Shown: one piece after another, positions 4,266 through 39,790 of the stretch
How positions within the stretch are numbered: position 1 is the stretch's first letter
How the letters are laid out: each line of letters starts with the position of its first letter
Assembly: GCA_010405405.1 (NCBI GenBank)
Contig: MU004235.1
Span: 1,564,538-1,628,537 of the forward strand
Direction: 5' to 3'
From: Microthyrium microscopicum
Lineage: Eukaryota
Length of the DNA: 64,000 nucleotides
Translations under genes and position numbers: made by a program
The notes under the pieces: generated by a model
The model's input: the letters and a program-made list of their open reading frames with translations, nothing else
Told to the model about the DNA's origin: nothing
Database searches by the model: none

Positions 4266-6113
4266 TTATTTCGCCGAGAACTTGGATCGCTGGCGCAATG
4301 TACTTCCATAGTACCAGAGTGCATACAATCCAATACAACAGCCCACAATCAACCCGCCCAGCAATGACACACCACGGTCCACTCCTAGATTTCCAAACAA
4401 AGGACGCGAGAAGTGGATGGCACCAGTAGCCAAGCTTGATCGCACAAAATCATTGCCGGCGAAAAGGGAGGCAGCGTATTGTGGATATGTCAATGGCAGG
4501 AAGACAAAAATGCATTGGATGACGATGAATATGCCCACTGTGAATATCGTGATTCCAATCGTCGGCACAATCCAGTGGATATCTTCCCGACTAGTCCAGC
4601 CGAAGATGAATAGGCCAGCGGGACAGAACCAAGTGACGACAAGGGCTGGGATGAGACGTCGTTCGGGGGCTCCGATGCCGTTGGCTTTCATGTCAGGAAC
4701 GACGTACCAGTACAGCCAGGACCAGTATGTGGCGATAGCAATGATGACTCCGACGGTGATGGAGAGGAAGGCGAGGCCAGATTCGCCGAGGTTGAAGCCG
4801 TAAATGTCGTTGTAAACGAGTGGGAAGGCTTCGAAGAAGGAATAGTAGATTCCGTAGATCAGCGCAGTGTAGAGGGCAGTGAAACCGACTGCTGGATCGA
4901 GGAACATCATTTGGAGTGGTCGGTACAAGTTCTCGAGGATGAGGGCGGAGATGCTCATGTTCGCTTGGTCGATCTCGGATTGCGCTTTGAGGTTCTGGTT
5001 GCCTGTTGCAGCGCGGAGGCGGCGCGCGCGGTGGAGCAGGATGGTGGAGGGGTTTGTTTCGGGAAGGAAGAAGAACATTGCGATGAAGACTGGGCCGGCG
5101 AGCCAGAGCATTTCCCACATGGACCAGCGCCAGTTCTCAGCGGCAACGGAGAAGCCGGAGATGATGGGACCAAAGGCTGGTCCGCAGGTTGCGGCGAGGG
5201 CCCAAAGGCAGACGGCGAAGGGGAGATAGAGGAGGCTGTACATGTCTTGGAGAGATGCGCCGCCTGTAGCAAGACATGGCGAGCCGAAGAATCCTTGAAG
5301 AAATCGGAGCACGACCAGACCTGGGAAGTTGTTTACCAATGCGGTTGGGACACAGAGAATGACGAAGATGGCGAATGTGAAAACGTATGGTGGATTACGA
5401 CCGATGGAAGGAATCTCTGAAAGAGGGGACCAGAGCATGGGGCCTAGACCATAGGCCAAAACGTACATTGAGAGACCCATTGAAGCCAATTGAACGTTGA
5501 CGCCAAATTGTTCTATGATGCCTTGTTCTGAAGGAGCATAGATGGAGGATCCCATATACACAGCGGTAGTGTACAAGCAAATGATTAGAGTAACCCAGAG
5601 CTTCTTACTCAGTTTCCAGTTTTGTGGGTTTTCTGGATCGTCTGTCGTATACCAATCCACCAAAATGGTGCCGTCGTCAAGTCGATCCGGGACAATAGGT
5701 CTACTTGGTCCCTTTTCGGCAATGGCGAGAGAGAGTTGCTGTTCTAGATCGCGCTGGGAGCTCGATCGACTGAGAGCAGTTCTACTACCCACTCGTTCGA
5801 TCTGTCCGCGCTGAGTTCGTTGGGTGTGCATTTCTTCTAGGTGAGGGCCTTCTGCCGGTACAGTGACCCTCTTTTCCAAGTCGGTTGGCTCGGACGAGTT
5901 AGTTTCTGCTTCTTCCACAGGCTCTTTGTCGACCTTTTCGGCGTCTCCAGAAACGCTTGGCGAAGGTTCGGAAAATGGGGTATCCATGGCCGATTTGTTG
6001 GAGTAGGTGTGTGGGCATTCAAAATCTGGCTTCTCTTCTGGATATTGAAGAACTTTGTTTTTGGTGAGATAGCGGATGGCCTGGCCGACGGGAGCATCGC
6101 GAATCCACTCCAT
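4266..6113 (-). CDS. MFS multidrug transporter, DHA1 family (Flr1/Mdr1-like)
   Basis: 615-aa intronless ORF with ~12 TM segments and the DHA1 motifs VDWYTTDDPENPQNW, GPMLWSPLSE..GR, RFLQGFFGSPCLATGGAS, LPET and PERRL. Confidence 0.92.
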   Translation of the reverse strand: MEWIRDAPVGQAIRYLTKNKVLQYPEEKPDFECPHTYSNKSAMDTPFSEPSPSVSGDAEKVDKEPVEEAETNSSEPTDLEKRVTVPAEGPHLEEMHTQRTQRGQIERVGSRTALSRSSSQRDLEQQLSLAIAEKGPSRPIVPDRLDDGTILVDWYTTDDPENPQNWKLSKKLWVTLIICLYTTAVYMGSSIYAPSEQGIIEQFGVNVQLASMGLSMYVLAYGLGPMLWSPLSEIPSIGRNPPYVFTFAIFVILCVPTALVNNFPGLVVLRFLQGFFGSPCLATGGASLQDMYSLLYLPFAVCLWALAATCGPAFGPIISGFSVAAENWRWSMWEMLWLAGPVFIAMFFFLPETNPSTILLHRARRLRAATGNQNLKAQSEIDQANMSISALILENLYRPLQMMFLDPAVGFTALYTALIYGIYYSFFEAFPLVYNDIYGFNLGESGLAFLSITVGVIIAIATYWSWLYWYVVPDMKANGIGAPERRLIPALVVTWFCPAGLFIFGWTSREDIHWIVPTIGITIFTVGIFIVIQCIFVFLPLTYPQYAASLFAGNDFVRSSLATGAIHFSRPLFGNLGVDRGVSLLGGLIVGCCIGLYALWYYGSTLRQRSKFSAK

Positions 6114-7957
6114 GGCAAAGGTTTTGAAAAGTGATCAAGCGGTGTGTGATGTGTTGAGATAGAGAGGTGTTGTGGTTGATACTTGGTATGCAGGAAGCCT
6201 TGTTGGTGTTGGCAGATGGTATGAGGAAGGATTGATTGAGTTGAAAACAAGAAGGAGAAAACGAGGCGGGAGCTCAAAAGAGTTTAAATAGTGCAACTGA
6301 TAAAAGGAGCTCCATTGACTACTACTAGCATATCTTCTTTAATAATGCCATAAAGTCCGATTAAGCTACAGGTATGGTGGTGTACCTTTGGGTTAGCTCC
6401 AGGAGCTTGTGAGCTGCAAGCTTGAGCACTCAAATGACAAAAAGAGGGATGACAAATGTTTAGATCCTGGACATGGAGTGGATCGCCAACAATCGCGTTT
6501 TCTAACCATCCGTCCCAAAAGCCCGCCGGACGGCGGGACTTTTCTCACTACTATTTTGCCAAGATGGGATAACCTTGATTCAGAATCTTCCATGATTCTG
6601 ACTGATGCAAATGCGCGTATTTACGCCTTATCCGGGTGGCTCCAAGAGATATTCAGAATGGCTTATGGGCTCATAACGTTAGGTTACGAAAGTTGCCGAC
6701 ATCCATGTCACGGAGAATGTGTGAAAAGCGAGCGAACAGAGGGTGGCCTGTCGTACAAAGGCCATTGATGACTGAATTGAACCCAAATCGATTGTGATCT
6801 TGATTCATGATTCTTGATACCTACGATAGAGAAGTGTGTCGCAGACTCGCAAGTCGCAACAGGGGAAAATGCGACATCAGGGACAAATAATTGACAATGG
6901 GCAGATACGTCACCATCAGTCAGCTTTTCCTGCCTTCTGATTGGTTTCGCTTAGTCTATCCCAATTCCCAAATCCCCAACTGCATGTCTGCAACAAACCG
7001 ACACTGATTTGCAGGAGACTAAACAAACTAAAATCGAAAGAACATGCAACTTGATTGATAAATGAGCCACCAAATAAGCCAAGAACATTTAGTCGGCATA
7101 AAACTGTGTATCGTGCTGCTCTAGTTGATGTCGATGCTCCAAGCCAGTGAAGCCACTATTATTGAAGATTAGGAAACAATCGCGAAGTCCCAATTAGGTC
7201 TAGCTCAGCCGCTGCAAAGACTAAAGTCCATTTATCTCCAGACTGTCCTCCACCTCAAGCTCGTGAGCTCCTCCAACCAACATCAAGATCATCACATCAT
7301 CAAAGTTTTAGCTTTGCCACTAGTACTTGCAACCTCTAGTGGATCTTCAACCAAAATGATTGATAAAGCTCTGCCGATCTGCATGATTGTTGAGAACTTG
7401 AGATTCCCAATGTTCTTTACATTCTACATAGTCGGACGAATGTTTCCCCAGCTCTCATTATCAAGCTTTTCAACAGCTAATATCCGCCTCGCCCATCACC
7501 TCCAGCTACCGGTAGCTCAATCACCTGGACACTTATTAAATGGTACCGACTCCGACTCCGATTCTCATGCTTCGACGTGTGCGATGCCTCTAGACGAGAA
7601 TTATCTGTAGACTTTGTTTTTGTCTTTGATCTTTGCGGTCATCAGATTATTTTCAGAAGTATGAAAAGACCTCAGGAATTCCTATACTATCGCCACAATG
7701 ACAAATGGAAGAAAAGACACCAAAAAGTGGTCTGTGAATTCTTTCTCCGACCAATTTGACCGGATTGTAAGTTATGCATTCTTGCATTTTCTTTTTAAAT
7801 TAAAAATCGAACCAATATACTGGTAATCAGTTTGAATAGAAAGACAACACGCTCCAAGCAAAAAACTTCTCCGTATCATACACTAAAGCACTGAACAGAG
7901 ATATTGAAATACCTTTTTCACACACCAACATGGAACATCATGGTGGCTACCAGGCCA

Positions 7958-9065
7958 TCAGTGATGTCCATGTTCCATATGCTTCATCTCCATATGCTTG
8001 GACTCCGTATTCTTGGAATCCGTATGCTTCATGTTCATGTTCATACCCGTCCTCCCACCAACATGTTTCGGCGCTTTCACCGCCGTACTCCCATTAAATC
8101 TCTCAGTCGCCCAGTCTCTGATCTTCCCCCAGTTCCTACATACATGCGGTCTATTGGTGTCGATATAGCTCATGCCTAAACCCTCAAACCATCTACTAGG
8201 AATAGGCGTCAAGTCCGCATGGCACATGAGTGATTGTCGAATCGCATCAAAGCAGTGGTTGCGATGCAGAATGGGGTCTACGTGTTCGTGGTGCCCGTGT
8301 TTACTGTTCTTGTAGCGATCTGGATGAAGTTCTTGCCGGATGAAGTTGAGACAGTGGAGAAGATGTAACACATCAAGGCCGCCTACGTAGCCGCCATCGC
8401 CATGCTCTTTGAATTGTTGGTAGTTTGGACCCCATGATTCTCGGGCTTCTTGCTCTGTCATTTCAAAGTAACGGCCTGAGGGTGATTGTTAGTCTGGTAT
8501 TTATGATGAAGCCAAGGGAGGGAGCGAAAGCTTCGAGTGCGATGTAACCAAGAGCCAAGTACGAGGGCTTTTGATGCATGGCACGATCATCTTGGAGGAT
8601 TTTACAGGACTTACCTCCAATAGTATCCATCCAATTATCATCAAGCTCATCATTCGCCTCACCAATAAATCTTCTCTCATTGGGATCAAGAATCAGTGAT
8701 CCGACTCCTTCCTTGGTCCAGGTAGGCGTTCCCCAAAACATTTTAGTTTCTATTGAGATTTGTGATCTTGCACCTGCTATTTCCGTCGAGAACCCTTCTT
8801 CAAAAGACCCCAAAGAAGAGGAGGCCGATGAAGAAGCTGCAGATATTGTTTTGGAGACTGTCGGAGTAAAATACAACCAAACAGTTAAGCTGAAGAAAAT
8901 TATGTTTGATATCCAAAGAAATGTCGTTGATTTCCACCACCCCTTTCGCTGTGGTCTGATGACTTGATTTTCGTCATCTTGATTTTTCTCCATCAAGGGA
9001 TCATCTTCCACCTGGCTGTAATTCCATGATTTATACCAGCGAGGGAGTGATGAAAGCATAGCCAT
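7958..9065 (-). CDS. UstYa-family / DUF3328 oxidase (~322 aa; exons 9065-8615 and 8475-7958)
   Basis: N-terminal TM anchor (FLWISNIIFFSLTVWLYF), two HxxHC motifs (DVLHLLHCLNFIRQ; HRNHCFDAIRQSLMCHADLTP) and a distal HVCRNW. A GT..CTAAC..CAG intron at 8614-8476 joins the two listed ORFs in frame. Confidence 0.93.
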
Positions 9066-10581
9066 CAGTTTGTTGAGAAAAATTATCGTACAGCAAGCAA
9101 GTGAGAAGGGAAACAAAAAAAATGGATCAAGTGGAAAAGGAGGACTTGGCCAACTGGTGATGCAGATTATATCACTTGGCCCCCATTATCTGATAGACTT
9201 TTACTTCAATTTCCCGGTAAATGGTACAACTTCTCTGACATTTCGGTAGACCAAGATCACCAACAATCTAGACCGGAATATTTCAATCTGTGTTTTGATG
9301 CATCGGGGTCTTGATTCTTCCGGCTGGTATAATAATATTTTTACTATATTGCTCTGACGATACTCAGCTATAAATAATTGTAATCCAAAGTTCTGGGCAT
9401 GAAAAACTTAGAGTAGTTTGTGGAGATCAAAGTAGTTCGCCATTTGATTAAGAGATGAGAACAGCCTGAACAGGTCAGCCCTCACCGAAATGATCTGGGG
9501 AAGATATAGATTGTAAAGCAAACACATCAAACAATGCCAAGTGAGTTTAATGAGCATTGGCGCCAATCGGCTGCTGGCAAAGCAATATTAGTACGAACTT
9601 TGATATATAATACCTGAAAAAGTTACCTAATATTAAGGTTAAAGATATTTGTCTAAATTCTTAATACGTATTGCCAAGAAAGCCAAGTATCGTAGTTAAA
9701 GTGTAGTAGTGTATGGCCAAGAAAAGCCAAGGGAAAGTAGGGTATTCGATATCAAATAACCGAACTGTCGTTCGTATATGTGTATATGTGCTAAAGGGCA
9801 GAGGTATTCATGGAATGCCCAATGTGCCTATACGTGGCCACACACCAGGCTCGTGGAAAGGAGAAAGCGTTCGTAGGATGATGGAGAATGATGCCAAAAA
9901 AGCTTATACGAACTTTCCAAGTATCACCAGAATGTCCAAGAAAAAGAGGGCTGCTTAGATATAAGTATCAGACATCAGAGTTGGCCCCAATAATGACGGG
10001 TGTTTGGAATGTATTCGCGTCGCCACTCAGACTGGTTATAGCTCAATATAAATTAGTACAACGGGTGATCACCCCTGAGTGACTCTTAAAAGTATGTGAA
10101 CCATATTCAAATGTGTCTCTTTGCAAGCCCTGGGGTCTGTCGCCATCAAGGACCAACCGAGCCGACACCATCCACAGATTAAGAGGCCAAGCCGAGTAAA
10201 AGCTGTCAATTCTCATCAAAATGAGAGTACCAAGACGGAAAAGACGGTACTTATATCATTAAAAATAGAAATAGTTGGTCACAGACTAACTTTGCCATCC
10301 GGAGACCTGTCTCAATCACTGCCTGATTTAGACACAGGTACGAGTACTCATTTCTACGCTAGCATATTGATGTATTCTTCCATGAATCGGTGTTGAGAAT
10401 CATTAATCTATGTGTTGTTTATGACAGTTATGCGAATTTGATGAGGCTTCATCATCATCATTCCGAAAGGTCTCCAAGAACCTCGTGCTCATTGAACGGA
10501 GTGAAGCATAGTAGTCCAAATTACCTCCGTCAGCATTACCTTCACGATATTAAGGCACTGTTTACTAGAACCTCAAAAGCG

Positions 10582-10587
10582 TATAAA
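10582..10587 (+). promoter_or_regulatory. Putative TATA box of the repeat-precursor gene
   Basis: TATAAA ~100 nt upstream of ATG 10684, which sits in a good context (TCAAAATG). Confidence 0.45.
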
Positions 10588-10683
10588 GAGACACATCTTC
10601 CCGCAGGATCATACTTTCTCATCATCACAACTTACAACTTAGTACTTCTATTAAACTTAGTCACTCACTTAACAACCTTCAAA

Positions 10684-11454
10684 ATGCGTTTCACTTCAAT
10701 CATCGTTTCCTCCATCTTGGCCTACTGGTAAGACTTCATCATGCTTGCTTTGCACACGAAAAACTAACCATATATAGCGCCATGGCCTCGCCAGCTGAGC
10801 AGGCCACTGCTGCTGTTGCCGCACCAGCTGCACCAGCTGCCCCAGCCGCACCAGTTGTCGCTGAGTACCGTGATGGCGGACGTGACGGATACCGCCGAGA
10901 TGCTGGTCGCGATGGATACAGACGCGATGTAAGATCTCACCCGCATGCCACATAGACTTCTGTTCGAAACCTCATACTAACCAATTCAGGGCGGCCGTGA
11001 CGGACACCGTGATGGCGGTCGTGATGGACACCGCGATGGCGGCCGAGATGGACACCGTGATGGCGGCCGAGATGGACACCGTGATGGTGGACGGGACGGT
11101 CACCGTGATGGCGGTCGGTAAGTCAACATGAGAATCAACCATCTGATGATTATATACTGACGAATTTTCAGCCGAAACTACAAGCGCGCCGAAGCTGCCG
11201 TAGCTGCTGAGGAGTACCGTGACGGTGGACGTGATGGCGGGTAAGTTTACCTCTTATCAACTGTCTTCCCAACCTAATTAACAACTTCTAGATACCGCCG
11301 CGATGGTGGCCGTGATGGACACCGTGATGGCGGCCGCGATGGTCACCGTGATGGCGGTCGTGATGGACACCGTGATGGTGGACGGGACGGACACCGTGAT
11401 GGCGGACGGGACGGTCACCGTGATGGCGGACGTGATGGACACCGATACTACTAG
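10684..11454 (+). CDS. Secreted repetitive peptide precursor (KEP/RiPP precursor candidate), 184 aa; exons 10684-10727, 10778-10928, 10990-11117, 11172-11240, 11292-11454
   Basis: Four introns, each with a GTAAG donor, a CTAAC/CTGAC/CTAAT-type branch point and a YAG acceptor, splice to a 555-nt open frame: MRFTSIIVSSILAYCAMA-SPAEQATAAVAAPAAPAAPAAPVVAE-YRDGGRDGYRRDAGRDGYR(RDGGRDGH)5RDGGRRNY-KR-AEAAVAAEE-YRDGGRDGGYR(RDGGRDGH)6RYY*. Repeat units vary at synonymous positions in this frame. Confidence 0.92.
10990..11448 (+). repeat. 24-nt-period coding tandem repeat (RDGGRDGH)
   Basis: CGN GAT GGY GGN CGN GAY GGW CAC: 5 copies around exon 3 and 6 in exon 5. Confidence 0.95.
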
Positions 11455-12427
11455 ATTTCTAGCCAGGCGTCTGGTTAGTTTGAGGAGTGCACTTGGGATC
11501 CTCACCTAAAAGAATTATTCACTTCGATACTATTGTAGTATAGCGCTTATTTACCAATATGAAGGATTGTCAATCCACATTACTTATTAAAGCACCGTTC
11601 ACAACAGAAAAGAAACAAGATTGTAGTGAGGAAGTGGTGTGGACTTCACAGAACTTCAAGGGAGGTATGTATGACACATATCAGTCCCTAGATGGAACTT
11701 TGCCTATAAATCTCCATCTCTTTCATTGACTTACCCATGGCATTCAACTGTTGTAAAGCGGATGATTATCAAAGCAAGAACAGTGGAACACGCTGCTCCC
11801 AGGATATGCTTTTAACTTTCCGGAGGTTGTTCCAGTAATTGTAGCACTCTATGGACGAGGAAGGTCAACATAACGATCTCCTACCATGCATACAGGCAAA
11901 AAGGACGGGGACTTTACCCTATGTGAGCATGCCGATGACTTCTTTTTGGAATGCTGACTCCGTTTACATTGCCAATATTCTTCCTTCTGCACAACCGTCA
12001 ATGGCCATGTTGGGAGAGTCGTTGAGCAAGCCAGACCAATTTAGGCGATAAATTCAATGTCCTTGGCGCCTGTGACGTGCCTCTTGTGTTGATGCCTGGA
12101 GAAGAACACTACGAGATCATAGGGATAAGCTTCAGCAATGTATATATGAAATGGAGAGGTGGTTGCGAGTGTTTAGGCTGGTACATACAAATTGGAAGAC
12201 ACCTCTCTTTGCTGAGACATATGCAGAGAACTTGGACGAGATTGATGGGATATCTTGAAATGTGTCATCTCAGAACTTGGAGTATATATGGTAGCTTCTC
12301 TCTATTTCAGTCTAACATTTTTGCTGGAAAACACAAGCAATCTTATGGACAGGATGACTTTGAGAGAAATATGATCATGATACGTTATCAAGTATAGACT
12401 ATGCGGTGAAGTTACGAAGTCATTATA

Positions 12428-14874
12428 CTATATGACTGTGATTACATTGCCAAGATACATCTCGGAGTACTTCTCACCACGTTCCTTTCGGCTTGCATTT
12501 TGTGGGCTAAGAACCCATTTGCCATCCTCGTGATTGTCCAAGAGCTCTGTAGTAGGTTTCTTCGTGATGTATGTGCAGGCTGGGTGTCGCTCCACATCCG
12601 ATGCTTGTTCTGCGGTCAACTTAACAAGCCTCCATTCTACCCCGGAGCTGCGAGAATACCCAGTGCCACTGTCAAATACTTCGAGATTCTCACCAATCTT
12701 GGCGGAAAGTGCTGGATACTCCTCGTGGTCCACTAACAACCAGATCGCAAAGATTCCATGAGAGGGATCTTGCTCATCTTTGTCAAAAGATCGGTAATCT
12801 GAAAGTAATGACACAAATTCATACCCCATTGTTGAAATTATTAACATCCCGATCCTCTTGTATTCTTGCAGATTCATATCAGCGCATTGAAGAACAAGCG
12901 CATAACAGTATTGATGAAAGTCAGCGTTTGGCTCATTGCTGAAGAAGAGCATGAGAATGAAAACCTCTGTGTTGTCCTGCAATTGGTCATCGCCGTGAGC
13001 CGACCAATTGTAATCGCATTTGAGGTCAAGTTTGGGAAAGCTCCATTTTGCTGATCCCTCTTTCCCCACGCTGATGGATGGAATAAATTCGAGGTTTCCA
13101 TCGTCAGAGTAGTCAACATCTGCTCTTATTAGATTACCTCTGATTCGAAGCTTCCCATAGTTCAATTTTCCCTTGGGGTTCGCCTTATCCTGGGGTTCGA
13201 TTTCCACATCAAGGATCTCGCACATGTACTCATTTGTTTTCGTTGAAATTGTGGGATAGTATATCCAGCAGTTTGCAGATGCCCAGGACCAAGTAGGTGC
13301 AAAAGTCAGAGGTCTGATTTTCCCAGGTTGGCGCCCAACAACGTACCAAATCAAATCACCAAGCAACGCATTCTCCCAAAGACCCGCCAAATATCGCCCT
13401 GGAATATCTCTGTGGAACTCTTGAGCAAGACCTGCTATCGCTGGAAGGCGATCGGTGGAGTAGGACAACAAAGTCCTGGAGTATTCTTGAACGACCTCGC
13501 GCCAATGCTGGTGAATATCAGAGTATGTAGCCAGGCCCGTTTCTCTATCCCTAGAAGGTTCCGGTGCGAGACTCCCGCGGGTTTTCCGAGTGACGATATA
13601 CGATATTCTTGCATCATGATAAGGCTGATATCCGCCACACTGACAAGTCTGCTTCTCCATACACTCCCAGATCAATTCGAGTTTGTTGAAATGTACCACT
13701 CGAGGCGACAAAACTCGCTCTTGTAGTACCCATGCTCGCTGGAGAAGGGGATAATCATTGTCGTAGTTTGCGTAGGAGTTTGCGTGGGAGTCCCCAAGAG
13801 AAAAATGTTTCATGAGAGATCTAACATGTACTTCGAAGGTTTCTCCCACATCTCCACGTAAGATGAATGAGTTTCCACCGTTGCGATCATAAAGTAAACC
13901 AGTCTCACTATTCGGAGATGCTGTGGCAGCCAAAGTTAGATGGGAATGCTGATATATCAATGACATATTTGATGCCTCTCTATTCCAATCGTGATCGTCA
14001 TCCTGGATGATGCAAAGAGAATCAATCCAGATGTATTGAATCCCTAGATTCCGCGTGAATACGATAGCATCTTGAAAAGTCTGAGGCAAAGAAGTCCAAG
14101 GTATTTGTTCTTTGAAACTCTCGCGGTTTCCGTTCATCATTCTTATGGGTTGCGAATCGCCCCAGCAGTGACTGAGACAGGTGTACTGGGCAGCCGGTTT
14201 GTTAGTTGCTTCAACAAGTCGGACTGCTGAGTTTGAGCTTCCAACATGTATGACGCGACTTGGAAAGAATGTAGTCGCGGTTGTACATGCCGTGTTGTTT
14301 AATGGTTGCAAACGTGTTGACTCCTGATGTCGCTGATCGCATTCTACATGCTCAGAGATACACGATTTCAGTTGTTGAAGTGTCCATGGTAAGGCTTCCG
14401 TTAGCGCTATGCAAGTCAGCGAATGCAAGTGCCAAAGTGAGCCAGTGTATGAAAATGCCTTCTGCAGATACAACATACATGTGGTCGCTGGACTATCAAA
14501 AAGGCAGAAACTTCGGAGCTCAATGATTCAAAGTTCATAAGGATTTAAAGTGCAAGTCAGTAGGTCTTACCTGACGCATCTAAAAACTCTACACTCATGG
14601 AACCCCGCCACACATATACCACGACCCTCCGATCAACAAATCTCCCTAGATTGAAGTTACTTGGCTGTCCTTCTGTGAACAAGTCAACTCCGCGCTTAAT
14701 CAGCGCGCATGGCTGACAGCCATCTTGTATAGCTTCAATGACTTCTCCTGGCGTGACTATTCGGTGCAAGTTCTTGTCCAGGAGCAGAATCCGAGGCCAC
14801 GCCTGCTCGCGATCACAGCCGCACAGCCAGCATGCATTCTCAAGCTTCGGAAACGACTCCCAGGAGTCATTCAT
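12428..14874 (-). CDS. HET (heterokaryon incompatibility, PF06985-type) domain protein
   Basis: Motifs YTCLSHCWG, LPQTFQDAI..TRNLGIQYIWIDSLCIIQDD..DW..EA..M..IY and PLLQRAWVLQERVLSPR. The first exon (14874-14571) has CxxC motifs and a GTAAG donor; the acceptor is uncertain. Confidence 0.9.
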
Positions 14875-23124: not shown

Positions 23125-23991
23125 TCACACATGCCAATCCCAGCCCACCGCCAACTCAGGAGCAGTCTGTTGCAAGTCCAATCCCACAGTAAACAACGTT
23201 TCTCCCGCAGACATATCATGCTCAAAGTGCCCATTATATCCAAACACGTCCGCATAACGCTCTTTCTTATAGAATGTTTCTTCCGTAAAGTAAGGCTCTG
23301 TGTAGGAACATTCGATACCAAGAGCCTCAAGTTTGGACTGGAACCATTTCAAGGTGTGCCAGGGATAGATGAAATGTCTCTGCTCTTTGCTGCCTCTACA
23401 CAGGTATGGTCTCCATGGATTGTATACTATTTCTATCCTTCGGAATTTGTGGTTTGTTTTCGATGCTATAGAGGCGAAGTTGTAGATCCATGGCATGATC
23501 TTTAGATAGAAGTGGTCGAAGGGGACTTTGGCCCATTTTAAATCAATGGTAAACGCGATGGTCGTAAGAGTTGGTGTTATAAGTCTTCCAGCGGCGGCTG
23601 CTGGTGTAGGGAGGTTGTCGTATGGACCTCGGATCATGCAATTTCGATCATCATCGTTCTTAGTCTTCTGTTAGTATATTCAATATAAGTACTGTCCAGT
23701 TCAACATCTCAACGGGACATCAATTCACGCAGGCTTCAAGATGTATTTATCGTGAAATTAGACTTACTAGTGACTCTACTGAGGTCGTTCCATCGTGCCA
23801 ATTTGCCAGCACTTCCCAGGATATGTTTATGATTTTCAGTTGTTCGAAAGATACTAATGGAGCAGGACGCAGTTTCCCAACAGCCGTGAAGCCCTCGATA
23901 AGAGCTAGTTTAGTCAATGATCCACTGTGGTTCCTCAAAAGATCACTTAAGCTGAAAATAACATTCCGTCGCTGACATATGAGAATCCTTC
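23125..23991 (-). pseudogene. 5'-truncated tandem paralogue of the adjacent F-box-like gene
   Basis: Shares GSLTKL..GF, ISWEVL.NW.D, YDNLPTP, IMPWIYNFA, YNPWRPYL and YTEPY.TE..FY with 24312-26238. Only ~320 nt separate it from the upstream copy's stop codon, leaving no room for the N-terminal half. Confidence 0.6.
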
Positions 23992-24311: not shown

Positions 24312-26238
24312 TCATGACCAGTCGACTGTTGACCACGCAACTGCTAGCTCAGGAGCCATTTCTTCCAGGTGTTTGAAGATATCATCCAGCGAGTTGTCAA
24401 AGCGTTCCCACATCGGATGACCAACAAGTGCATAAGCTTCTTCCATATAAAACTCGTCCTCGGTAAGATAGGGTTCGGTATAAGTAAAAGTGATGCCCAA
24501 AGCATCAATTTTTGTTTTGAACCACTCCAGAGCTCGCCAAGGATACATGAACTCCAGACTTTGTGGCTGCTCTCTAAGGTATGGTCGCCATGGATTGTAC
24601 ATGATGTTCAACCGTAAGCCAGGCTTTCTTTTAGCTGCGTTGGTTGCAAAGTTGTAGATCCATGGCATAATCATTGCACAGAAGTCAGAAAATGGGACCT
24701 TGGCCCTGAAAGTTATCAGTACAAGATAACGATGGTGATAGTGGTTTTGGTTGTCCACTTCCATTAAGAAAAGGGTGAAAGTGCTTGTATCGAGGGATAG
24801 TCTTACCACGTTGTATCAATTGGAATCTCAATAGTCGTGATGGTTGGCGTGATAATTTTCTCCACTACGCTTTCTGGCGTTGGGAGATTATCGTAGGAAC
24901 CCGCAATGTAGCCATATTTGCTATCATCAAATTCAAGCCCCTATGAATGTGGGCCAAGGCAAATATAACGCGTTCACACGCCGGCCCGGGTGCCCGACAA
25001 AATTGGCCATCTCCAATTAAGAATAACGAACCATCGCTTCATGATTTCGCGAGATATTTCAAAGATCTCGGCAAATCATGACGCACGACTAGAAGAAGGT
25101 AGTCAGTCTTACCAGTGATCTTACTGGTGTAAGTTCGTCAGACCAATTGACAAGTACCTCCCAAGATATGATGATGGTGTGCAAACTTTGATAAAAGATT
25201 AGAGGATTTGGGTCAGGCAATAAATCATGGAAGGTTGCGAAACCACCAGCCAAGATCAGTTTTGTTAATGAGCCCTTCTGGCCGCTCACAAGATTCGCAA
25301 TACTCTCGTTCCACGCTCTTATAGTGTTGTCATCAACTCCTGAGTTCTCGCTAGGCCCGGCAAATCCCATCGTGGTACAACCCATAGTGAAATGTTGCAA
25401 CTGATCAAACTTGAGCACATTCATCGCTCTCTGGAGATTCTTAAAGCTTCCAGGAATAAAGCTTTCGCCATACCATATCAAGTCTAGATGCTTAAGCGCG
25501 GGCATAATCCTAGAAGTCGTTAGTGTAAAAACAATGACGAAGCGACGCCGGAACATCTGACTGAGTTTCATAACCCGGAAAAAGATTCTACAATGAGTAC
25601 TTGGATACAAGGCAAACTTACCTGAACATTTGCTCTAGCATCAAACATCCCGTGCGCAAATGTTGTGCGTAAGACTCAGCGTTATTGAAATCAAAATCCC
25701 ACATCACACTCAGGCATTCAAGTCTCTCGAAACTACCCAAGAATTGCAGAAAATGAGCGGCTTCAACGGTTGACAACCTACCATCGCGCTCGAGAGGTTC
25801 TCGAGGAGGACCTGCGTCAAAGTCAAGGCGGAGCACTCGACAAAAGGCGTTCAGACTTGCTAAATTGCATTTTTGCCGGTTGATCCATGCCGGAGCTTGG
25901 AACTCGCCCATGATATGGAATCGAAAGCTGTTGTATATCATTGGAATCGTAAGGCTGTAAAAGCGTTTGCAAACGCGCGCGAGCACGAAAGCCGCGGATT
26001 TTTTATACTTGTCACAGTCACATGTGCGAGTTCTCCAATCACAACTAGTGTGGACATCATCCCAAGAATCCGTAGTTCTTAGAGATCGAGAGGAATTAGA
26101 TGGTGTAGTTGTGACGAATGTAACAATCCAGAGCAGGAGTTCGTCAGGAAGGCGAAAGATCCAGGCATTTGGCGGTTGGGTAGTAGGCCTAGCGATAAGT
26201 TCTTGCGAACCACTGCTCGCCTCGAGATCTTGTGGCAT
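24312..26238 (-). CDS. F-box-like protein (multi-exon)
   Basis: F-box-like start IFRLPDELLLWIVTFV ... LARVCKRFYSLTIPMIY. ORF segments are joined by GT-AG introns, e.g. 24806-24706. Confidence 0.72.
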
Positions 26239-32003: not shown

Positions 32004-34583
32004 GATGGATGTTGGTGGAAGTCAAGATCAATTGCGAATAAGTCGACGAAGTAGAACTAGAGAGAACTTGAAAGGAGTCAAAACTGGCGACATAATTCCT
32101 GCTTTGAAAGACGTTAGTTGAGAGTGCAGGGGCTACAGAAAGCTCCGTGCATCTTGCTGTCTAGGGGCTGGTTGAAGCTGAACAGTCAGTTAAAGGTAAA
32201 CTTCACGTCTTCTGACTTCTCTTGACTCTTCCCTTGCAAGTTTCATCCCATGATTGCATCAGAGAGACAAATTTTTTCTCTCTCCACATATATCCTACAG
32301 GTCACAATACTTAAGACTTGTTTGGTAAGCAGATTATCTTTATGCTAACTCTGCACCTGCACTCGACTCAAGAACAACAATTGCTCTGCAAAACCAGCTG
32401 CAATAAGGTTCTTACGGAACCTGAAAGAGAAAATCCGGTGATAGGTATGGTGTTGAGGAAGATCCGCGAGCGTGTGGCGTAACCTCAAAATATGCAGGTG
32501 GACCCAGCAAATTCGCTCTGCAGCCACGCGCGCATCCGCCGCTGTTGACTCCAGAGTCCATACGAAGCTAGAGAGATGAACATGCGAATCCTTCCTTTAC
32601 AGTACTGGACTAAAATACTCATTGATTTAGAAGTGTTAACTAAGGCAATCATTAGGCACTCGTAATGTATCATGTAACAGCAGAGGCTATTCATTCTTAA
32701 ATTATTCAGCATCAAGCCTTCCTGCCGTTGATGTTACAAACTTTCTTTGAAAGCCAACCAGTGGATAATCAACTGGTGCCCCCATCAACTTAGAGGCTCT
32801 CATGAACACTGCTAAACAAAAGATGCTGTATTTTCCATCGCGTTCGATAAACTATGCTAGTAAGAACGCCCTTTATGGGAAATAAAGCACTCGATAGCAA
32901 ATCGTGTCATGTGGAAGCCATCGAGCTCGATGGGAGCACACCAGTTATTTTGTCCTTAGCTTGAAAGCTAAGCACTTCGACTCGTGATGAGCCTCGGGCT
33001 CGCTAGTGGAGAGGGTCGGCAGGCCATTTGGAGTACCTTCGGATCGCGATCTAAGGGTACTTAGAAGGCGTTTTTACTCCTTAAATAGGAATAGCACGTA
33101 AAAGAATAAAAGTTATTTTTACTAAGTAAAATTAACTTATACTCTACTTTTATTTCTTATCCTAACTTATAATTAACCTATTTTAGAATAGCGCTAAAGT
33201 TAAGTTAATATTAAGTTATTATAGATATTATAAATATTAAAGGACTATATATTTCTATTCTTTTAAATATAATAATATTATCCTATTTAAATTTATATCT
33301 TCTATTAGTAAAGATACTAAGAACCTAAATTATTTAATCTCTATATATATATTTAATAGCTTATACTAATATTAATTCTATATTAATAGAGTTATTAATA
33401 GAATTAATATTATTCCCTTTATTACTACTAGAATCTTTTAAGGAATCTTAGAGTAATATAGTAATAGCTAATATATAAATTTAAGAATCTTAAGGCTAAG
33501 AATAAACTTAGGATTACCTATAGTATACTTAGAATTAATAAGTTAAGGAATCTTAGCTTTTTAAAGATTAGTATTAAGAACTACTTTAGAAATTAGTATT
33601 AATAAGTAATTATCTAGGTACTCTAATACTAATAGCTTAATTCTACTTTTATTAGTATCTTATTACTTAAAATACGTATATATTACTTCTTAATATAAAA
33701 TATATTTTAGTTATATCTAGTACTTTAACTATAAGTTAAAGATATAAAATTAAATAAATAAAAGATAATCTTTATATAGTAGTAAATTATACTTTTTAGA
33801 ACTATAATATTTATAGTAGTACTAGTAGTAATTAATTATTTAATTAGATAAGTAGATTTTAGGTTTAAACTACTTTAGCTTTCTATACTATAATTAGTAT
33901 TTAGCTTAATAAAGAACTCTTTTAGGGTACCTTAAAGCATACTATTAATAAGGCTATAAAGTAATAGTAAGATAAAGTTACTAATAAATACTTAAGCTAT
34001 ACTATTCTATATAATAAAACTTAATAAGCTTTAAATAGCTTTATTAAGGTATAGAATAGTTATAAAGTATATTTAAAGAAGAAAGAAGCTATTAAAGAGA
34101 AATTTAAAGTAGGTTATTTAGAATCTTTATAGATAAAGGACGCTTTAGTAATAGAGATAGGTAAGAAGAAGCGCTTCTTAGCTACTCCTACTAATATTCT
34201 TATTATTATTAATAAGGACAATATAGTAGAAGTAGAGTCTACTAACGAATTAGTTATTAATCTTAATAGTCTTAAGGAAGAATAAACTAATTAGGCTAAA
34301 GATATAGCTTAGTCTAATAAAGATATTAAAGAAATTCCTTCTCTAGCATAAATATCTACCTTACTAGTAATTCTTAGACTTATAATTATTACTAATAATG
34401 TAGTAGTAGTAGTAAAGACTTATAATTAATTAGTTTAAGTCTATAAAACCTAAAATTACTCTATAAAGAAGAAGACTATAATAGATATTATATTTTTAGC
34501 TATAGATATATTAGCTAATATTAATAAAAAGATTAGGTAAAGAGATAATATTAAATAGCGTATTATAAATAATAATAATATTA

Positions 34584-34616
34584 GTAATAGTAGTAGTAGT
34601 AGTAGTAGTAGTAGTA
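34584..34616 (+). repeat. (TAG)n microsatellite inside the RIP block
   Basis: tagtaatagtagtagtagtagtagtagtagtagtaa. Confidence 0.8.
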
Positions 34617-34984
34617 AAGAAGGTAAAGTTATAGGCCTAAAGGAAGAGGTAAATAGATTATACTTAGAAATAATAAAGATAAAGGAGTTATTAAAGAGTC
34701 TTATAGATAATAGACGTTAGTAAGAGTATTCTAGTATTCTTTATATAATTTAGTAGTAGTATTAGAATATAGTTTTTATATAAATCTTATAATAGATACT
34801 AAAAGCTTTAAAAGTATATAAAAAGGTTAAATAATTAGCTAACTCTATTTTATTAACTTCTTCTCTTTTAGTAAGAATATCTAACTTTACTCTATAATTT
34901 TAATATCTTTAATAAATACTATAACTATTCTATACTATTTAAACTATACTCTTCTAGATAATATATAAGTAGTATAATACTATT

Positions 34985-35610
34985 AAGATATAAATATTAA
35001 TATACTATTAGTAAATTAATTTTAAATTATATACTAATAACGTTTCTATAAAAATAGGTTATATAGTTAATAAGTAAGAATAATACTATTATATATACTC
35101 TAACTAGTATTAATCTTATCTATAAACTAAAATAATAATTAGAGATACTTCTCTTAAATAAATCCTTTATTCTACTAAAATATTACTTAATTAATACTTA
35201 CTTTTTAGTAGCTATTTTATTAAAATCTCTTTAGTATAGTAGAAGGTTTCCTTAGTATAGACTTATTATTAGCTTATTTAAAAGATAAGTAGCATTACTA
35301 TAAAGCATATATTTCTAGTAGTTACTAAATATCTATATTCTAGATTAATATATTATAATAACTTTATAGTTTTATAACTTTAACTAACTATTTAAATATA
35401 ATTTAATAAGTCTAATTAAATTAACATTTTAGGATTATTTACTATACTAAGATAAGGACTATTAATAATAAGTATTATTCTATTAAGGAAATAAACTACT
35501 TAGAACTTTAAATTATATTTCCTTTTATATCTTCTATATAAATATTTTTAAATCTAATCCTCTAGCTTTAAAATATTAATATAGGTACTATTAATATAAT
35601 CCTAAAAGAT
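34985..35610 (-). pseudogene. Catalytic core of a RIP-mutated Harbinger-type (DDE_Tnp_4) transposase
   Basis: The minus strand reads F*DYINST, Y..YKRKYNLKF*VVYFLNRI, LYSNATY, FNKIA.KK*VLIK*YFSRI and LLINYITYFYRN. Reversing C>T/G>A changes gives WGYIDGT, HDLKFQAV.FPDG, LYGDAAY, RVSIEQYFG and LLTNCITCF.GN, in the order expected for a DDE core. Confidence 0.85.
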
Positions 35611-37199
35611 ATCCTAATCGTTATTATAATAGATTATTTTAGAATACTATTAGTAGTACTTAGGTATAATTAAGGAATAGAATTTTAGGTACTTAAAATA
35701 TCTAAAGTTAAGATATTTAATAATTCTATTAAAGTAATCCTTTAGGTATATTATACTTCTACTAAAGCGTTTATAAATATTAAAATAATAGTAATTCTAG
35801 GATAGCTATATTAGGACTAAATATAATAAGAAGTAACCTTTCTTTAGAGGATTATATTACTTTAGTAACTCTAGATTATTAAGATTTATTAGGTAAGATA
35901 ATATTTTAATTTTATACTTTAAAAAGCTATTATATACTAATTAGTACTATAGGTATTTTTTAATACTAATTCCTAGTATATTAATATTATAACTATATCT
36001 TAAACTCTAATATATTTTTAAAACTCTAATTAAACTTTATATATTTAATAAAGAGCTTAGATATATATTAGTATAAGAATTTTACTATAGCGTAATACTT
36101 TAATACTAAGATTAGTATTATTACTACTCTTATAGTTAGAACCTCCTTATTAGTATCTATTTTAGGCTATTTTTAGCTTTAGGGCGTAGATTATTAATAA
36201 AAATACTATAAAGTTATAGCACAAAAACGTTTATAGGGGTAATTACTATAAGGGTAGTTTCTACGATTTAATATTAGAAGATGTTAGGGGCTAGGCTAAT
36301 TCTAGCGTAGATCTATAGTCAAAATCTGTAGTAAATGTAGAGTCGAAATCATAGGAATTCACCTGCCGACCCTCTCCAGTGTCTGAGGCGCAAATATTCA
36401 AGGTATGGAGATGAGGCAAAGGGAGGGAGAGCTCGATTGCAGCCTTTTTCAGGGGCATGAGATAGGGGCTAGATGGCGACGCCCCATCAAATAAAGTATT
36501 GAGAATTAGCAGTTGGCAGTTGCTCAATCACTGCATTGCGAACAATCTTCCTACTACCCTACTTTCCAACTTTATATTTCTTTACACTTTCATCTTCAGC
36601 GGGAATGCCAAGCGACATCATAATCGAAGTTGGGTTAAACGTGAGTGTTATGGTCGATTATTGTGCTTACAGTCGTAACTTGGCAATGCTTAATCGATTT
36701 TAGCTTTGAGTCTAGACAACTCTATTTCACATTTGACGCAACGAGCAACCGCGCTTTCCTGACCGTACTGAGGCGCACTCCCACGCGGTAACCCCGAAGG
36801 CGCCTCTTTCAATAAGACACGCTTCAGTATTTGTTTTTCAAGAGCTCAAGAGTCGATACCAACTTCCGCATAACCGAGTGGTCTCTGAAGTTCGACCCAC
36901 GATTGGTCTATAGGGACCTTCAGCTCCTTAAACATGTACTCTTTGTACGCTACAAAGTTGAGCCATGCATCAAGATCACGATCAATTGGACAATCATTGA
37001 GCGGTCTCTCAGCCTTGCTGAAAACCGCGTGGCAGCCTGGCTCGTGGCAGGTGCAATGTCTGAGGTCGCAAGAGACTTATCCATCTCTCATTCCTTCTTA
37101 AGAGCTAAATAATTCTAGTGAAGTACTACTCGTTACATCTCTTTCGAAATCGCTGATGCCGCTCTTCGCCGTTAGCTTTTCACATTCGTTCATTTCATT

Positions 37200-39790
37200 A
37201 TGCGTTCATTACTGGCTGGTTTAGCTGCCGCCTTGCCATTCGTTCAAGCGTACACGGTCAACTTACAACAAAGAGATGCTCTAAAACGCGCCACGGTATG
37301 TGGAATACTTGCTTATGATGAGAATACCAAGGCGTATTTCTACTCGGAGAGCACGTCTCTTGCTACTGAAGCAGGGTGCGGAGCTCACTGTTTGGCCGAT
37401 ACTAGCTGTAAATCATTTGCTGTTGGGAGTGGTGCGTGTCTGCACTACACTGTTGCCGTGTAAGTACCTACTCCAAAAGCTTCGAAGCCGACGAGATCAG
37501 TTCGCTGCCGTACTATGTGACCCTGATATCGATCTGTTCACTTCGAAAACAACATTTTATCTGTTGATTTATTAAGGAGATCTCCTCTAAGGCTCAAACT
37601 TGCTTAGTGAATGAAGAACGAAAAGCTAATCAATCATAGAACTGGTAATATCAATGCGAATAGCAACAGTCCATATGCGTTTTATGATCGGGCCTGCGTT
37701 TCCGCGACGACCTCTTCCCATTCCTCATCCTCGTCATCCAGCTCAGCTCGCTCTTCAGCAACCTCAGCTGCTACTCAGTCCTCGGGTAGATCGTCCAGCA
37801 CTTCCAGCGCTTCCTTATTGACAAGCTCATCTCGCTCTTCGTCTGTAGCAGGAAGTTCAATCCAGTCCTCGACGACGTCCAGCTCTATACCATCCACCTC
37901 TGCCTCTTGTGGACTTGCAGGTTATGACAACAACAATCCGGTGTCTTACACTGATTCCAGCAACGCGGCCTATCGAAGTCTTTCAGGATGTGCAACGTAT
38001 TGTCGTTCACAGTCCGGAAAATGTTTATCATTTGCTTGGAGCAGCACGACTTGCTTACTCTATGCCAAGGTAGTGGCTGGCAACTTCAAGGCTAACGCGA
38101 AATCTCCGTACTCTTTCTACGATCTGGCTTGCATTGCTCCAGCGTCTTCATCAATGAGTAGCTCGTCAATCGCCATTAGTACAGCTGCCTCCAGCAGTAC
38201 AAGTTCGGTTTCTTCATCGTCTTCGGTGCCTCCATTTACTTCGAGTTCTACATCGTCAGTAGCAAATGACTCGACTACATCGACATCTTCGACTATGAGC
38301 TCCTCGGAAGTTCCAAGTTCTTCACCAACAAGTATATCCAGTGTACCAACTTCCAGCTCAGCGTTTTCAGCGTCATCATCCAGCTCCAGCGCCTCATCTA
38401 GCCTTCCAAGCTGCACACCAGCGCCAAGCCCTTGCAATGCTATTACTACTCCACCGGATACACTTTACACTAGCACCTGCACTTCTGGATGCACTTCCGG
38501 CTACGTTGTGCAGTGTGGAGCCGGACCTGGACCTGTAAGTTTTATCCGTGTGACATCAAGTTTTGCCTTGACGACAAAACAAAAATGCTTTCGCATTAAG
38601 TGGTGGCCATCAGACGTTATGGAAGCTACTTAGTGCGATGGCACGTTGTTATGGACGTCTTTTGTGAACTTTTTCAAGCATTTCCAAAACAACACATTGT
38701 TAGAATTTCATACTAATAAAGTCAGGGGAGCATCGCTGGAGGTACCTATCTGGGCGATGTCATATCGGGTGAGTTTTGTCAGTCGACTTGCGACAGCCTG
38801 TCAAAATGCGCTGGTTTTGTATTCGGGACGGTAGCCAATGACGTTGGGGAATGCTATCTTTACGACTATATCAATAGCTGGCAGCCCGGTGATCTTGTTT
38901 TGTACACGAAGATCTGCGCCCCATCAGCTGTATCGTCAAACAGCTCCATCATCTCAGCGACCAGCAGCAGCACCATCAGCTTGATACCTTCGACTGCTAG
39001 CTCCTCGGATATCTCCAGCTCGGTTCCATCGGTTGAGTCCTCTTCCACGTCTACAACCTCAAGTGATATGAGCATTCCTCCCGACTCTTCCCCTACGGTC
39101 GCATCCAGCACTCTTACATCTAGCATGGCTGTGAGCTCCGATGCGTCTAGCTCTACTTCAAGTCCTCCTTCCGCCAGCTCGGATACCTCCAGTTTCGCAA
39201 CAAGCACCTCGGTTTCCAGCTCTGTACCAAGCTCCATCGCCTCTTCTGTCACCTCAAGCTCTAGCTCCACCCCATCCGCTTCAGCATCCGCCATAAACAT
39301 CATCCAGGTTCCCGATCTGACAGCAGACCCCAGCGAAGATGGCGTAATGCAATGGGGATACCAAATCGAATACAACTATGCGCCAGCTCCATGGACGTTT
39401 TCCACCGGTTGCTTTTCCGGATATGCGCAAGGCTATTACTATTCACAATGCACCCACGACACCCGTACATTCTCCTGCATCGAGATTCAGGCAAGTGACT
39501 GCTATGTCTATCTATCACAAACCCTTACCACTGTACCGAACGCTGTGTATAACTTTTCGTTCCTTTACGCATCGATGCAAAATCTAGTCGATGGTGAATT
39601 TACCTGTACCGCGGGTGCTTCAACCATGGATCAGAGATTTTATGATCAGAGCGTTGCAGTGGGATGGAATCAATACAGCTCTTCTTTCACAGCTACAAGT
39701 TCGTCTACAGTTTTGAGTTGTGCTTTCTATGGCGGAGGAGATGGAATGGATGTCCAGTTTACTGAATTTTCTGCAAGCATTAGCGCTTAG
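37200..39790 (+). CDS. Secreted Ser/Thr-rich protein with PAN/apple-like Cys domains and a C-terminal beta-rich (CBM-like) domain
   Basis: Signal peptide MRSLLAGLAAALPFVQA. Two similar CG...YD...C...C.....C.SF......C..Y...Y.FYD.AC units, a third Cys unit and long Ser/Thr linkers. Introns at ~37460-37630 and ~38535-38725 join the ORFs. Confidence 0.8.

Follow-up and report, generated by a model that had tools for sequence, protein, structure and literature searches.

A DUF3328-paired gene with Tyr- and His-ended RDG repeats in Microthyrium microscopicum probably encodes a precursor for a new modified peptide

In the published surveys, a KEP (KEX2-processed repeat protein) is recognised by three or more similar fragments, each 8-100 aa long, lying between KR, KK, RK or RR sites (PMC7329392, PMC6339444). 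These surveys report that 22% of KEPs have DUF3328 nearby, mostly as the immediate neighbour, that Tyr is enriched in the DUF3328-linked KEPs, with His-His types without Tyr existing as well (PMC7329392), that 77 of 1193 KEPs carry two motif types (PMC6339444), and that precursors with several repeat or product types occur (PMC7329392). Cuts after single Arg residues have been observed in KEP peptidomics (PMC9769878), Kex2 is mainly, not exclusively, dibasic-specific (PMC6624476), and it favours an acidic residue at P1' (PMC2515848). A tyrosinase, a methyltransferase and a peptidase belong to an older definition of the dikaritins, to which exceptions are known (PMC12048977). DUF3328 proteins have lately been shown to be dicopper oxidases, with a chemistry known for few Tyr-containing cores, and a good number of the precursors linked to DUF3328 contain His but lack Tyr. 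Plant BURP cyclases cross-link His in moroidin. These cyclases share a four-His dicopper site with DUF3328, of which CctR is described as a dicopper enzyme with two HxxHC motifs and a membrane segment; DUF3328 proteins also take non-ribosomal substrates (PMC12435403). The literature searched on dikaritins and histidine gave no fungal example of iterative His cross-linking by DUF3328.

In a window of 64,000 nucleotides (the whole stretch of DNA analysed) from the 37.1-Mb genome of Microthyrium microscopicum, which has 58 contigs, the gene at 10684-11454 is real, spliced and part of a fungal genome. Its product has a signal-like start and an Ala/Pro spacer, then two modules that resemble each other and are linked by a single KR. 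The next gene upstream encodes a DUF3328 protein and is divergent, the two start codons lying 1618 bp apart. The features of the locus are the following.

10684-10727, 10778-10928, 10990-11117, 11172-11240, 11292-11454, plus strand: candidate precursor gene, five exons, 184 aa (spliced model, RNA-contig joints)
10684..10787, plus strand: residues 1-18, an N-terminus resembling a signal peptide and interrupted by intron 1 (hydropathy, -3/-1 residues)
10788..10865, plus strand: residues 19-44, the module 1 spacer, rich in Ala and Pro, last residue Glu (translation)
10866..10925, plus strand: the two module 1 units that end in Tyr, YRDGGRDGY-RR and DAGRDGY-RR (translation)
10923..11103, plus strand: His array 1, RDGGRDGH x5, residues 64-103, across intron 2 (translation)
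11182..11187, plus strand: single KR between the modules, preceded by RR-NY (translation)
11188..11301, plus strand: module 2 spacer AEAAVAAEE and Tyr unit YRDGGRDGGY-RR, across intron 4 (translation)
11299..11451, plus strand: His array 2, RDGGRDGH x6, residues 134-181 (11299-11442), ending RYY (translation)
9066..10683, no strand: divergent promoter of 1618 bp between the precursor and DUF3328 genes (motif counts)
7958..9065 (exons 9065-8615, 8475-7958), minus strand: DUF3328/UstYa gene, 322 aa (PF11807, E=3.4e-36)
4266..6134, minus strand: MFS transporter gene adjoining the DUF3328 gene, putative cluster member (PF07690, E=1.3e-32)
12428-14527: HET-domain gene on the other side of the precursor (Pfam)

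The gene model was compared with contigs (not reads) over 7800-11800 from public runs of two studies, one presumed to be RNA (X1) and the other a soil metatranscriptome (X2). All four introns are GT-AG, measure 50, 61, 54 and 51 nt and contain a branch site. The joints of intron 2 (10928-10990) and intron 3 (about 11116-11171) are seen in RNA contigs of both runs; introns 1 and 4 have no RNA joint in these contigs, and one contig breaks off at 11240, where the donor of intron 4 is predicted. No in-frame alternative acceptor that would change the dibasic pattern was found within 110 nt. The N-terminus has a basic residue 2, a 7-residue hydropathy of up to 2.8 and Ala at -3 and -1, and removing residues 1-18 leaves a calculated 17.7 kDa, in line with the ~17 kDa of a preliminary description of this DNA. 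That description had placed the start at 10864, and the spliced model moves it 180 bases further upstream, to 10684.

The spliced translation confirms several earlier remarks on the repeat: dibasic sites occur only at the YRR/GRR junctions and at one KR, the modules open with units that have Tyr instead of His, and they end in RNY and RYY. The count of 11 RDGGRDGH octamers also stands, but the octamers are not contiguous, forming instead two arrays (of five and six) that lie 30 residues apart. The dibasic sites are RR54, RR63, RR108, KR112 and RR133 only; four of the five are RR, and three of these four read RR|D. Between them lie fragments of 9, 45, 21 and 50 aa with the RDG frame, the last reaching the C-terminus, and by this count, made outside the survey authors' pipelines, the protein has the fragments by which KEPs are recognised. 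Ala-rich spacers of 26 residues (module 1) and 9 residues (module 2) stand on the N-side of YRDGGRDG(G)Y. The His arrays account for half of the protein; their compositions (R10/D11/H5 in array 1, R12/D12/H6 in array 2) are those of near-neutral polyampholytes, and every array Arg except the last precedes Asp. Tyr is present in the three short units and at both module ends, and His in 11 of the 14 units. RR follows every Tyr-ending unit (3/3) and none of the His-ending ones (0/11), a coupling consistent with selection for the release of Tyr-ended pieces. At the DNA level, a 9-bp tandem repeat lies inside the module 1 spacer (10821-10854).

Tandem Repeats Finder scores the two arrays at 180 and 203. 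The 11 units exist in 10 distinct DNA versions, all six variable columns (6/6) are at third positions, and pairwise comparisons give 179 synonymous against 0 non-synonymous codon differences, among units that are related by duplication and whose differences are not independent events. By this measure the repeat is under purifying selection. A slipped DNA microsatellite is excluded because only third positions vary. A genome-wide pattern search for RDGGRDG placed 12 of 12 matches within this gene, which has no paralogue in its own genome and is single-copy.

Signs of a relative come from the soil metatranscriptome. Beside near-identical contigs, one X2 contig (depth 6.7, read by eye) retains the array and is ~88% identical along array 1 (9 differences in 78 bases), the three listed differences (3/3) being synonymous; its loose end reads in frame GRRNW-stop where the precursor reads GRRNYKR. 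Judging from this contig, there is probably at least one relative with a single module and a Trp end. Further X2 fragments, which carry repeats of a similar kind, may be of bacterial origin and were left out of the evidence. The searches for homologues of the precursor are all weak, the query being of low complexity. Exon 5 gave six matches to longer proteins, the four inspected being unrelated low-complexity stretches, and a four-exon profile gave 15 matches at E<=1, with no name or Pfam assignment pointing to a fungus; both searches covered the top 8000 candidates and proteins of 94-2000 aa, and support absence weakly. Exon 2 gave four matches among 1.84 billion representative proteins, all unrelated repeat proteins, the ESM Atlas gave no usable match for either exon searched, and exons 2 and 5 have no Pfam match. 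RDGGRDGH is unmentioned in the literature searched and absent from the supplement text of PMC7329392 (accession tables) and PMC6339444, whose logos and picture tables may hold a matching KEP; Microthyrium microscopicum is absent from the supplements of both surveys. As far as sequence comparison goes, the novelty lies in the sequence type, a Tyr/His RDG frame, with homologues found only as soil metatranscriptome fragments.

The preliminary description saw an unusual grammar in long arrays lacking dibasic sites between units, but within the genome itself such a grammar is less unusual than that. We inspected 10 kb around each of the 11 other DUF3328 loci and found repeat-bearing frames at five of them, three of which (L044, L039 and L045) have units with no KR or RR between them. 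L044 (6477-7350+; contig C12, about 497.5-498.4 kb) is a secreted-type precursor divergent from a DUF3328 gene and has a matching layout: a KR-bounded KSKVGD x9 array precedes eight or more KR-flanked cores, which fall into several types and often contain Tyr or Trp, so that it is a multi-product precursor. L045 (7190-7960+; C9) stands beside two DUF3328 genes and has Lys/Ala-rich, Tyr-free His-His units (DPHHAAAKG...) that contain KK and are split by single-Arg (AR) sites; it may be a member of the published His-His KEP types. L039 (C8, about 230 kb) repeats a 32-aa Trp/Tyr/Pro unit three times, with single-Arg sites only. The remaining two are L037 (C15), canonical with KR after each of five units and placed among at least three DUF3328 genes, and L046 (C7), a longer protein whose end has four Tyr units, each preceded by RKR. 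Likewise, that one gene may give two product types is a possible layout but not new in kind, as multi-product precursors are among those published (PMC6339444, PMC7329392). Because of these other loci, the KEP surveys and the data on monobasic cutting, neither the missing dibasic sites nor the two product types are new in kind.

The DUF3328 gene has one canonical intron (8614-8476, 139 nt). Its product has an intact HxxHC pair (HLLHC at 188, HRNHC at 221), whose His and Cys are invariant in 12 aligned DUF3328 rows, and a single hydrophobic segment near residues 49-67 (19-residue hydropathy 1.62 at residue 49). Close relatives in the database (58-81% identity) are intact and spliced at the matching intron position; a profile search found no solved DUF3328 structure. 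Five His lie between the motifs, and the tail is rich in His and Met. Database relatives have 3-7 linker His in 9 of 27 cases and 0-2 in the other 18, and the His-linker group, 10 of the 28 tree rows, falls on one side of a weakly supported branch (65/81). The His/Met-rich tail corresponds to a 15-bp tandem repeat at 7974-8029 and could bind copper. In run X1, a 2-kb contig over the gene (7800-9432, with adapter at its 9432 end) retains the intron and no spliced transcript was seen; the contig cannot tell intron retention from antisense RNA or DNA. The genome has at least 22 exon-level UstYa matches at 12 loci, and with 12 loci in 37.1 Mb a DUF3328 neighbour within a few kb has a chance of ~0.2% (12 x 5 kb / 37,121 kb), so that a chance association is unlikely. 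The idea of a secreted-type repeat precursor beside DUF3328 is supported, an intact enzyme gene being directly divergent from it. In metagenomes, no RDG repeat was found beside DUF3328 at nine loci with distant enzymes (34-47% identity), four of which (4/9) are adjoined by ordinary KR/KK-type precursors. On metagenome contigs, canonical KK/KR precursors with Tyr cores were observed beside DUF3328 pairs (L029:8030-8360, L032-L034).

Among 79 open frames over ~31 kb (from 10 kb before the window to 21000, frames of 85 aa or more), none encodes a tyrosinase, a methyltransferase or a peptidase, and no metal transporter adjoins the precursor. Several other observations concern the window. Broken frames at 11780-12250 (plus strand) have no Pfam match and no BLAST similarity to the HET gene at 12428-14527; their end resembles the C-terminus of HET-type proteins. 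Two adjacent frames on the minus strand (23125-23670 and 24312-24815) have IMPWIYNFA in common and look like tandem paralogues without a Pfam match. The 3 kb at 33000-36000 have 17-21% G+C and short tandem repeats between flanks of 45-48%, and resemble a repeat eroded by RIP. A Ser/Thr-rich surface-type protein at 37611-39790 (plus strand) has Cys-spaced PAN-like units, with a weak PF14295 match below the cut-off.

The shared promoter contains eight GCCAAG sites (9145, 9175, 9536, 9673, 9682, 9716, 9726, 10186), with two close pairs among them. The PacC consensus is given as GCCARG (PMC3618310). None of 1000 dinucleotide shuffles reached eight sites (mean 0.96), and among 109 genome bins one reached eight GCCARG, four of its sites being supplied by a coding repeat. 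GCCAAG ranks first of all 6-mers when compared with 180 kb of genome background (Poisson 3.5e-5), an excess that is borderline after correction for 2080 6-mer classes (p about 0.07). The PacC motif was one of five chosen before testing, and the other four gave nothing; copper-, iron- and zinc-regulator and Zn2Cys6 motifs are not enriched in this promoter.

Taken together, the gene probably codes for the precursor of a modified peptide that is new but falls into a fungal class already known. Our best reading, to which we give an even chance, is a DUF3328-paired KEP, that is, a RiPP precursor of the dikaritin type, whose sequence type is new and which has two duplicated modules. Each module would consist of an acidic, Ala-containing spacer, one or more Tyr-ended RDG units, a His-ended RDG array and an aromatic end. 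The shared promoter would drive both genes, with PacC as the probable regulator when the pH is neutral to alkaline. The precursor would enter the ER and meet the membrane-anchored dicopper DUF3328 protein in the Golgi lumen. There the enzyme would read the RDGGRDG frame and oxidise or cross-link the aromatic residue at position 8, likeliest Tyr and possibly His; one enzyme reading RDGGRDG-X is the simplest model because His and Tyr occupy the matching position of the frame. Kex2 (one kexin-type gene is present in the genome, by P-domain match only) would then cut at KR and RR|D, and Kex1 would trim, giving Tyr-ended pieces of 7-19 residues and His arrays of 43 residues (65-107, without Tyr) and 50 residues (135-184, ending RYY). 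Removal of the Ala spacers would fall to other peptidases, which may also cut within the arrays, at single Arg|Asp sites, and the His arrays would be products rather than filler.

This scheme retains parts of the processing proposed in the preliminary description. Release of Tyr-bounded peptides by Kex2 remains plausible for DAGRDGY (and NY), which would get both ends, but YRDGGRDG(G)Y needs another protease on its N-side, where the Ala-rich spacer lies. Two His polypeptides of ~45-50 aa are predicted at 43 and 50 aa, but they need not stay whole because monobasic Arg cleavage of KEPs has been reported (PMC9769878).

A narrower reading, unlikely but credible, takes only the short Tyr-ended pieces as cores and the His arrays as discarded spacers or enzyme-recognition repeats. 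Each Tyr unit has its own RR, Tyr is described as required in the characterised dikaritins (PMC7329392), and the KSKVGD x9 array among the Tyr/Trp cores of L044 shows that arrays can expand in such genes. Yet the arrays are half of the protein and invariant at the protein level despite 10 DNA versions in 11 units, the diverged X2 relative retains the His unit, and array 2 itself ends in RYY.

The His residues could also serve to scavenge metals, which we regard as rather improbable. Arrays cut after Arg would give DGHR x11 or longer DGH-ended pieces with ATCUN sites for Cu(II) and Ni(II); in a variant of the same reading, uncut arrays would bind Zn or Cu through regularly spaced His and Asp, PacC switching the genes on when metals are poorly soluble. 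Complete cutting after basic residues is computed to give DGHR x11 and DGGR x14, and the ATCUN end is NH2-Xaa-Xaa-His, as in Asp-Ala-His-Lys of albumin (PMC8775498). Array Arg is followed by Asp, a favoured P1' residue (PMC2515848), and monobasic cuts by Kex2 or yapsins are documented (PMC9769878, PMC6624476). The PacC-consensus sites also recall the zincophore pairs PRA1-ZRT1 and aspf2-zrfC, with their divergent promoter under PacC/Rim101 control (PMC3386192), and the DUF3328 neighbour belongs to the weakly supported His-linker group. On the other hand, dibasic cuts give fragments starting with DGG or DAG rather than Xaa-Xaa-His, so that the 11 ATCUN ends depend on single-Arg cuts. Yeast Kex2 works poorly with Gly or His at P2. 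Furthermore, the locus has no adjacent metal transporter, the promoter has no ZafA- or Mac1-type sites or excess of GATA-type sites, and the Tyr units and the DUF3328 gene would have no explanation.

Equally improbable, in our estimate, is a secreted, disordered, charge-balanced Gly-rich protein of the wall, of a matrix or for adhesion, cut little or not at all, beside a DUF3328 enzyme that has another substrate or is a leftover. The near-neutral polyampholyte arrays would suit such a protein, as would a single-sequence AlphaFold run of array 2 that gave no fold (pLDDT 57.6, pTM 0.11) and is itself uninformative; there is a single canonical KR, unmodified structural KEP products are known (Rep1), and X1 has no spliced DUF3328 transcript. 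Against this stand the divergent DUF3328 neighbour, unlikely by chance, the strict Tyr-RR coupling, and the spliced and intact DUF3328 relatives.

Most doubtful is a bolder form in which the locus makes either a fungal ribosomal metallophore, with 11 stored ATCUN DGHR released under alkaline, PacC-controlled conditions, or a polycyclic peptide of 43-50 residues whose His are cross-linked iteratively by DUF3328.

Returning to the dikaritin-type reading, the locus can be set beside the known systems. Alpha-type pheromone precursors differ in having XA/XP dipeptides for Ste13, absent here (KR is followed by AE-AA-VA, and RR by DG, DA-GR or NY), and in having no DUF3328 nearby, whereas one adjoins this gene. 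ATCUN peptides and the Pra1/Aspf2 zincophore are alike in that DGHR fits Xaa-Xaa-His, in a secreted-type His product and in a divergent PacC-type promoter; they differ in that the precursor needs a cut before Asp-Gly-His and has an oxidase rather than a metal transporter as partner, and we claim no homology to Pra1. KEP types G-3 and G-8 (Umemura 2020), which are DUF3328-associated, Tyr-free and His-His, also offer His; compared by text, their logos being figures, they differ from a precursor with a single His every eight residues, no HH and no Pro. Within the genome, L044 shares a KR-bounded hexamer array x9 with KR-flanked Tyr/Trp cores, and L045 and L039 separate their units by single-Arg sites, all in unrelated sequences. 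The closest systems are the dikaritin/ust-RiPS precursors (ustiloxin, asperipin-2a, phomopsin, epichloecyclin), whose published descriptions (PMC7329392, PMC6339444, PMC10540207) agree with this one in the signal-like start, the repeats, the dibasic sites and the Tyr pieces. An adjacent DUF3328 gene with two HxxHC motifs is likewise common to both, here in a minimal cluster of one DUF3328 gene and a nearby MFS transporter gene. Such a two-gene unit offers a clean way to ask if DUF3328 proteins modify His and act iteratively on long uncut arrays, and if fungi cut such precursors at single Arg sites. The differences lie in the lack of tyrosinase, methyltransferase and peptidase genes, in His replacing Tyr in 11 of 14 units of a frame made of Asp, Gly and Arg only, in RR at four of five sites, and in Asp/Gly-rich units unlike the cores of ustiloxin, phomopsin and epichloecyclin. 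Whereas each ustiloxin unit has its own dibasic site, none of the 11 His units does, most units lying inside the 43- and 50-aa fragments rather than each beside a KR; KEP-mining rules that need a dibasic site per unit would misread such cores, of which the genome has three more.
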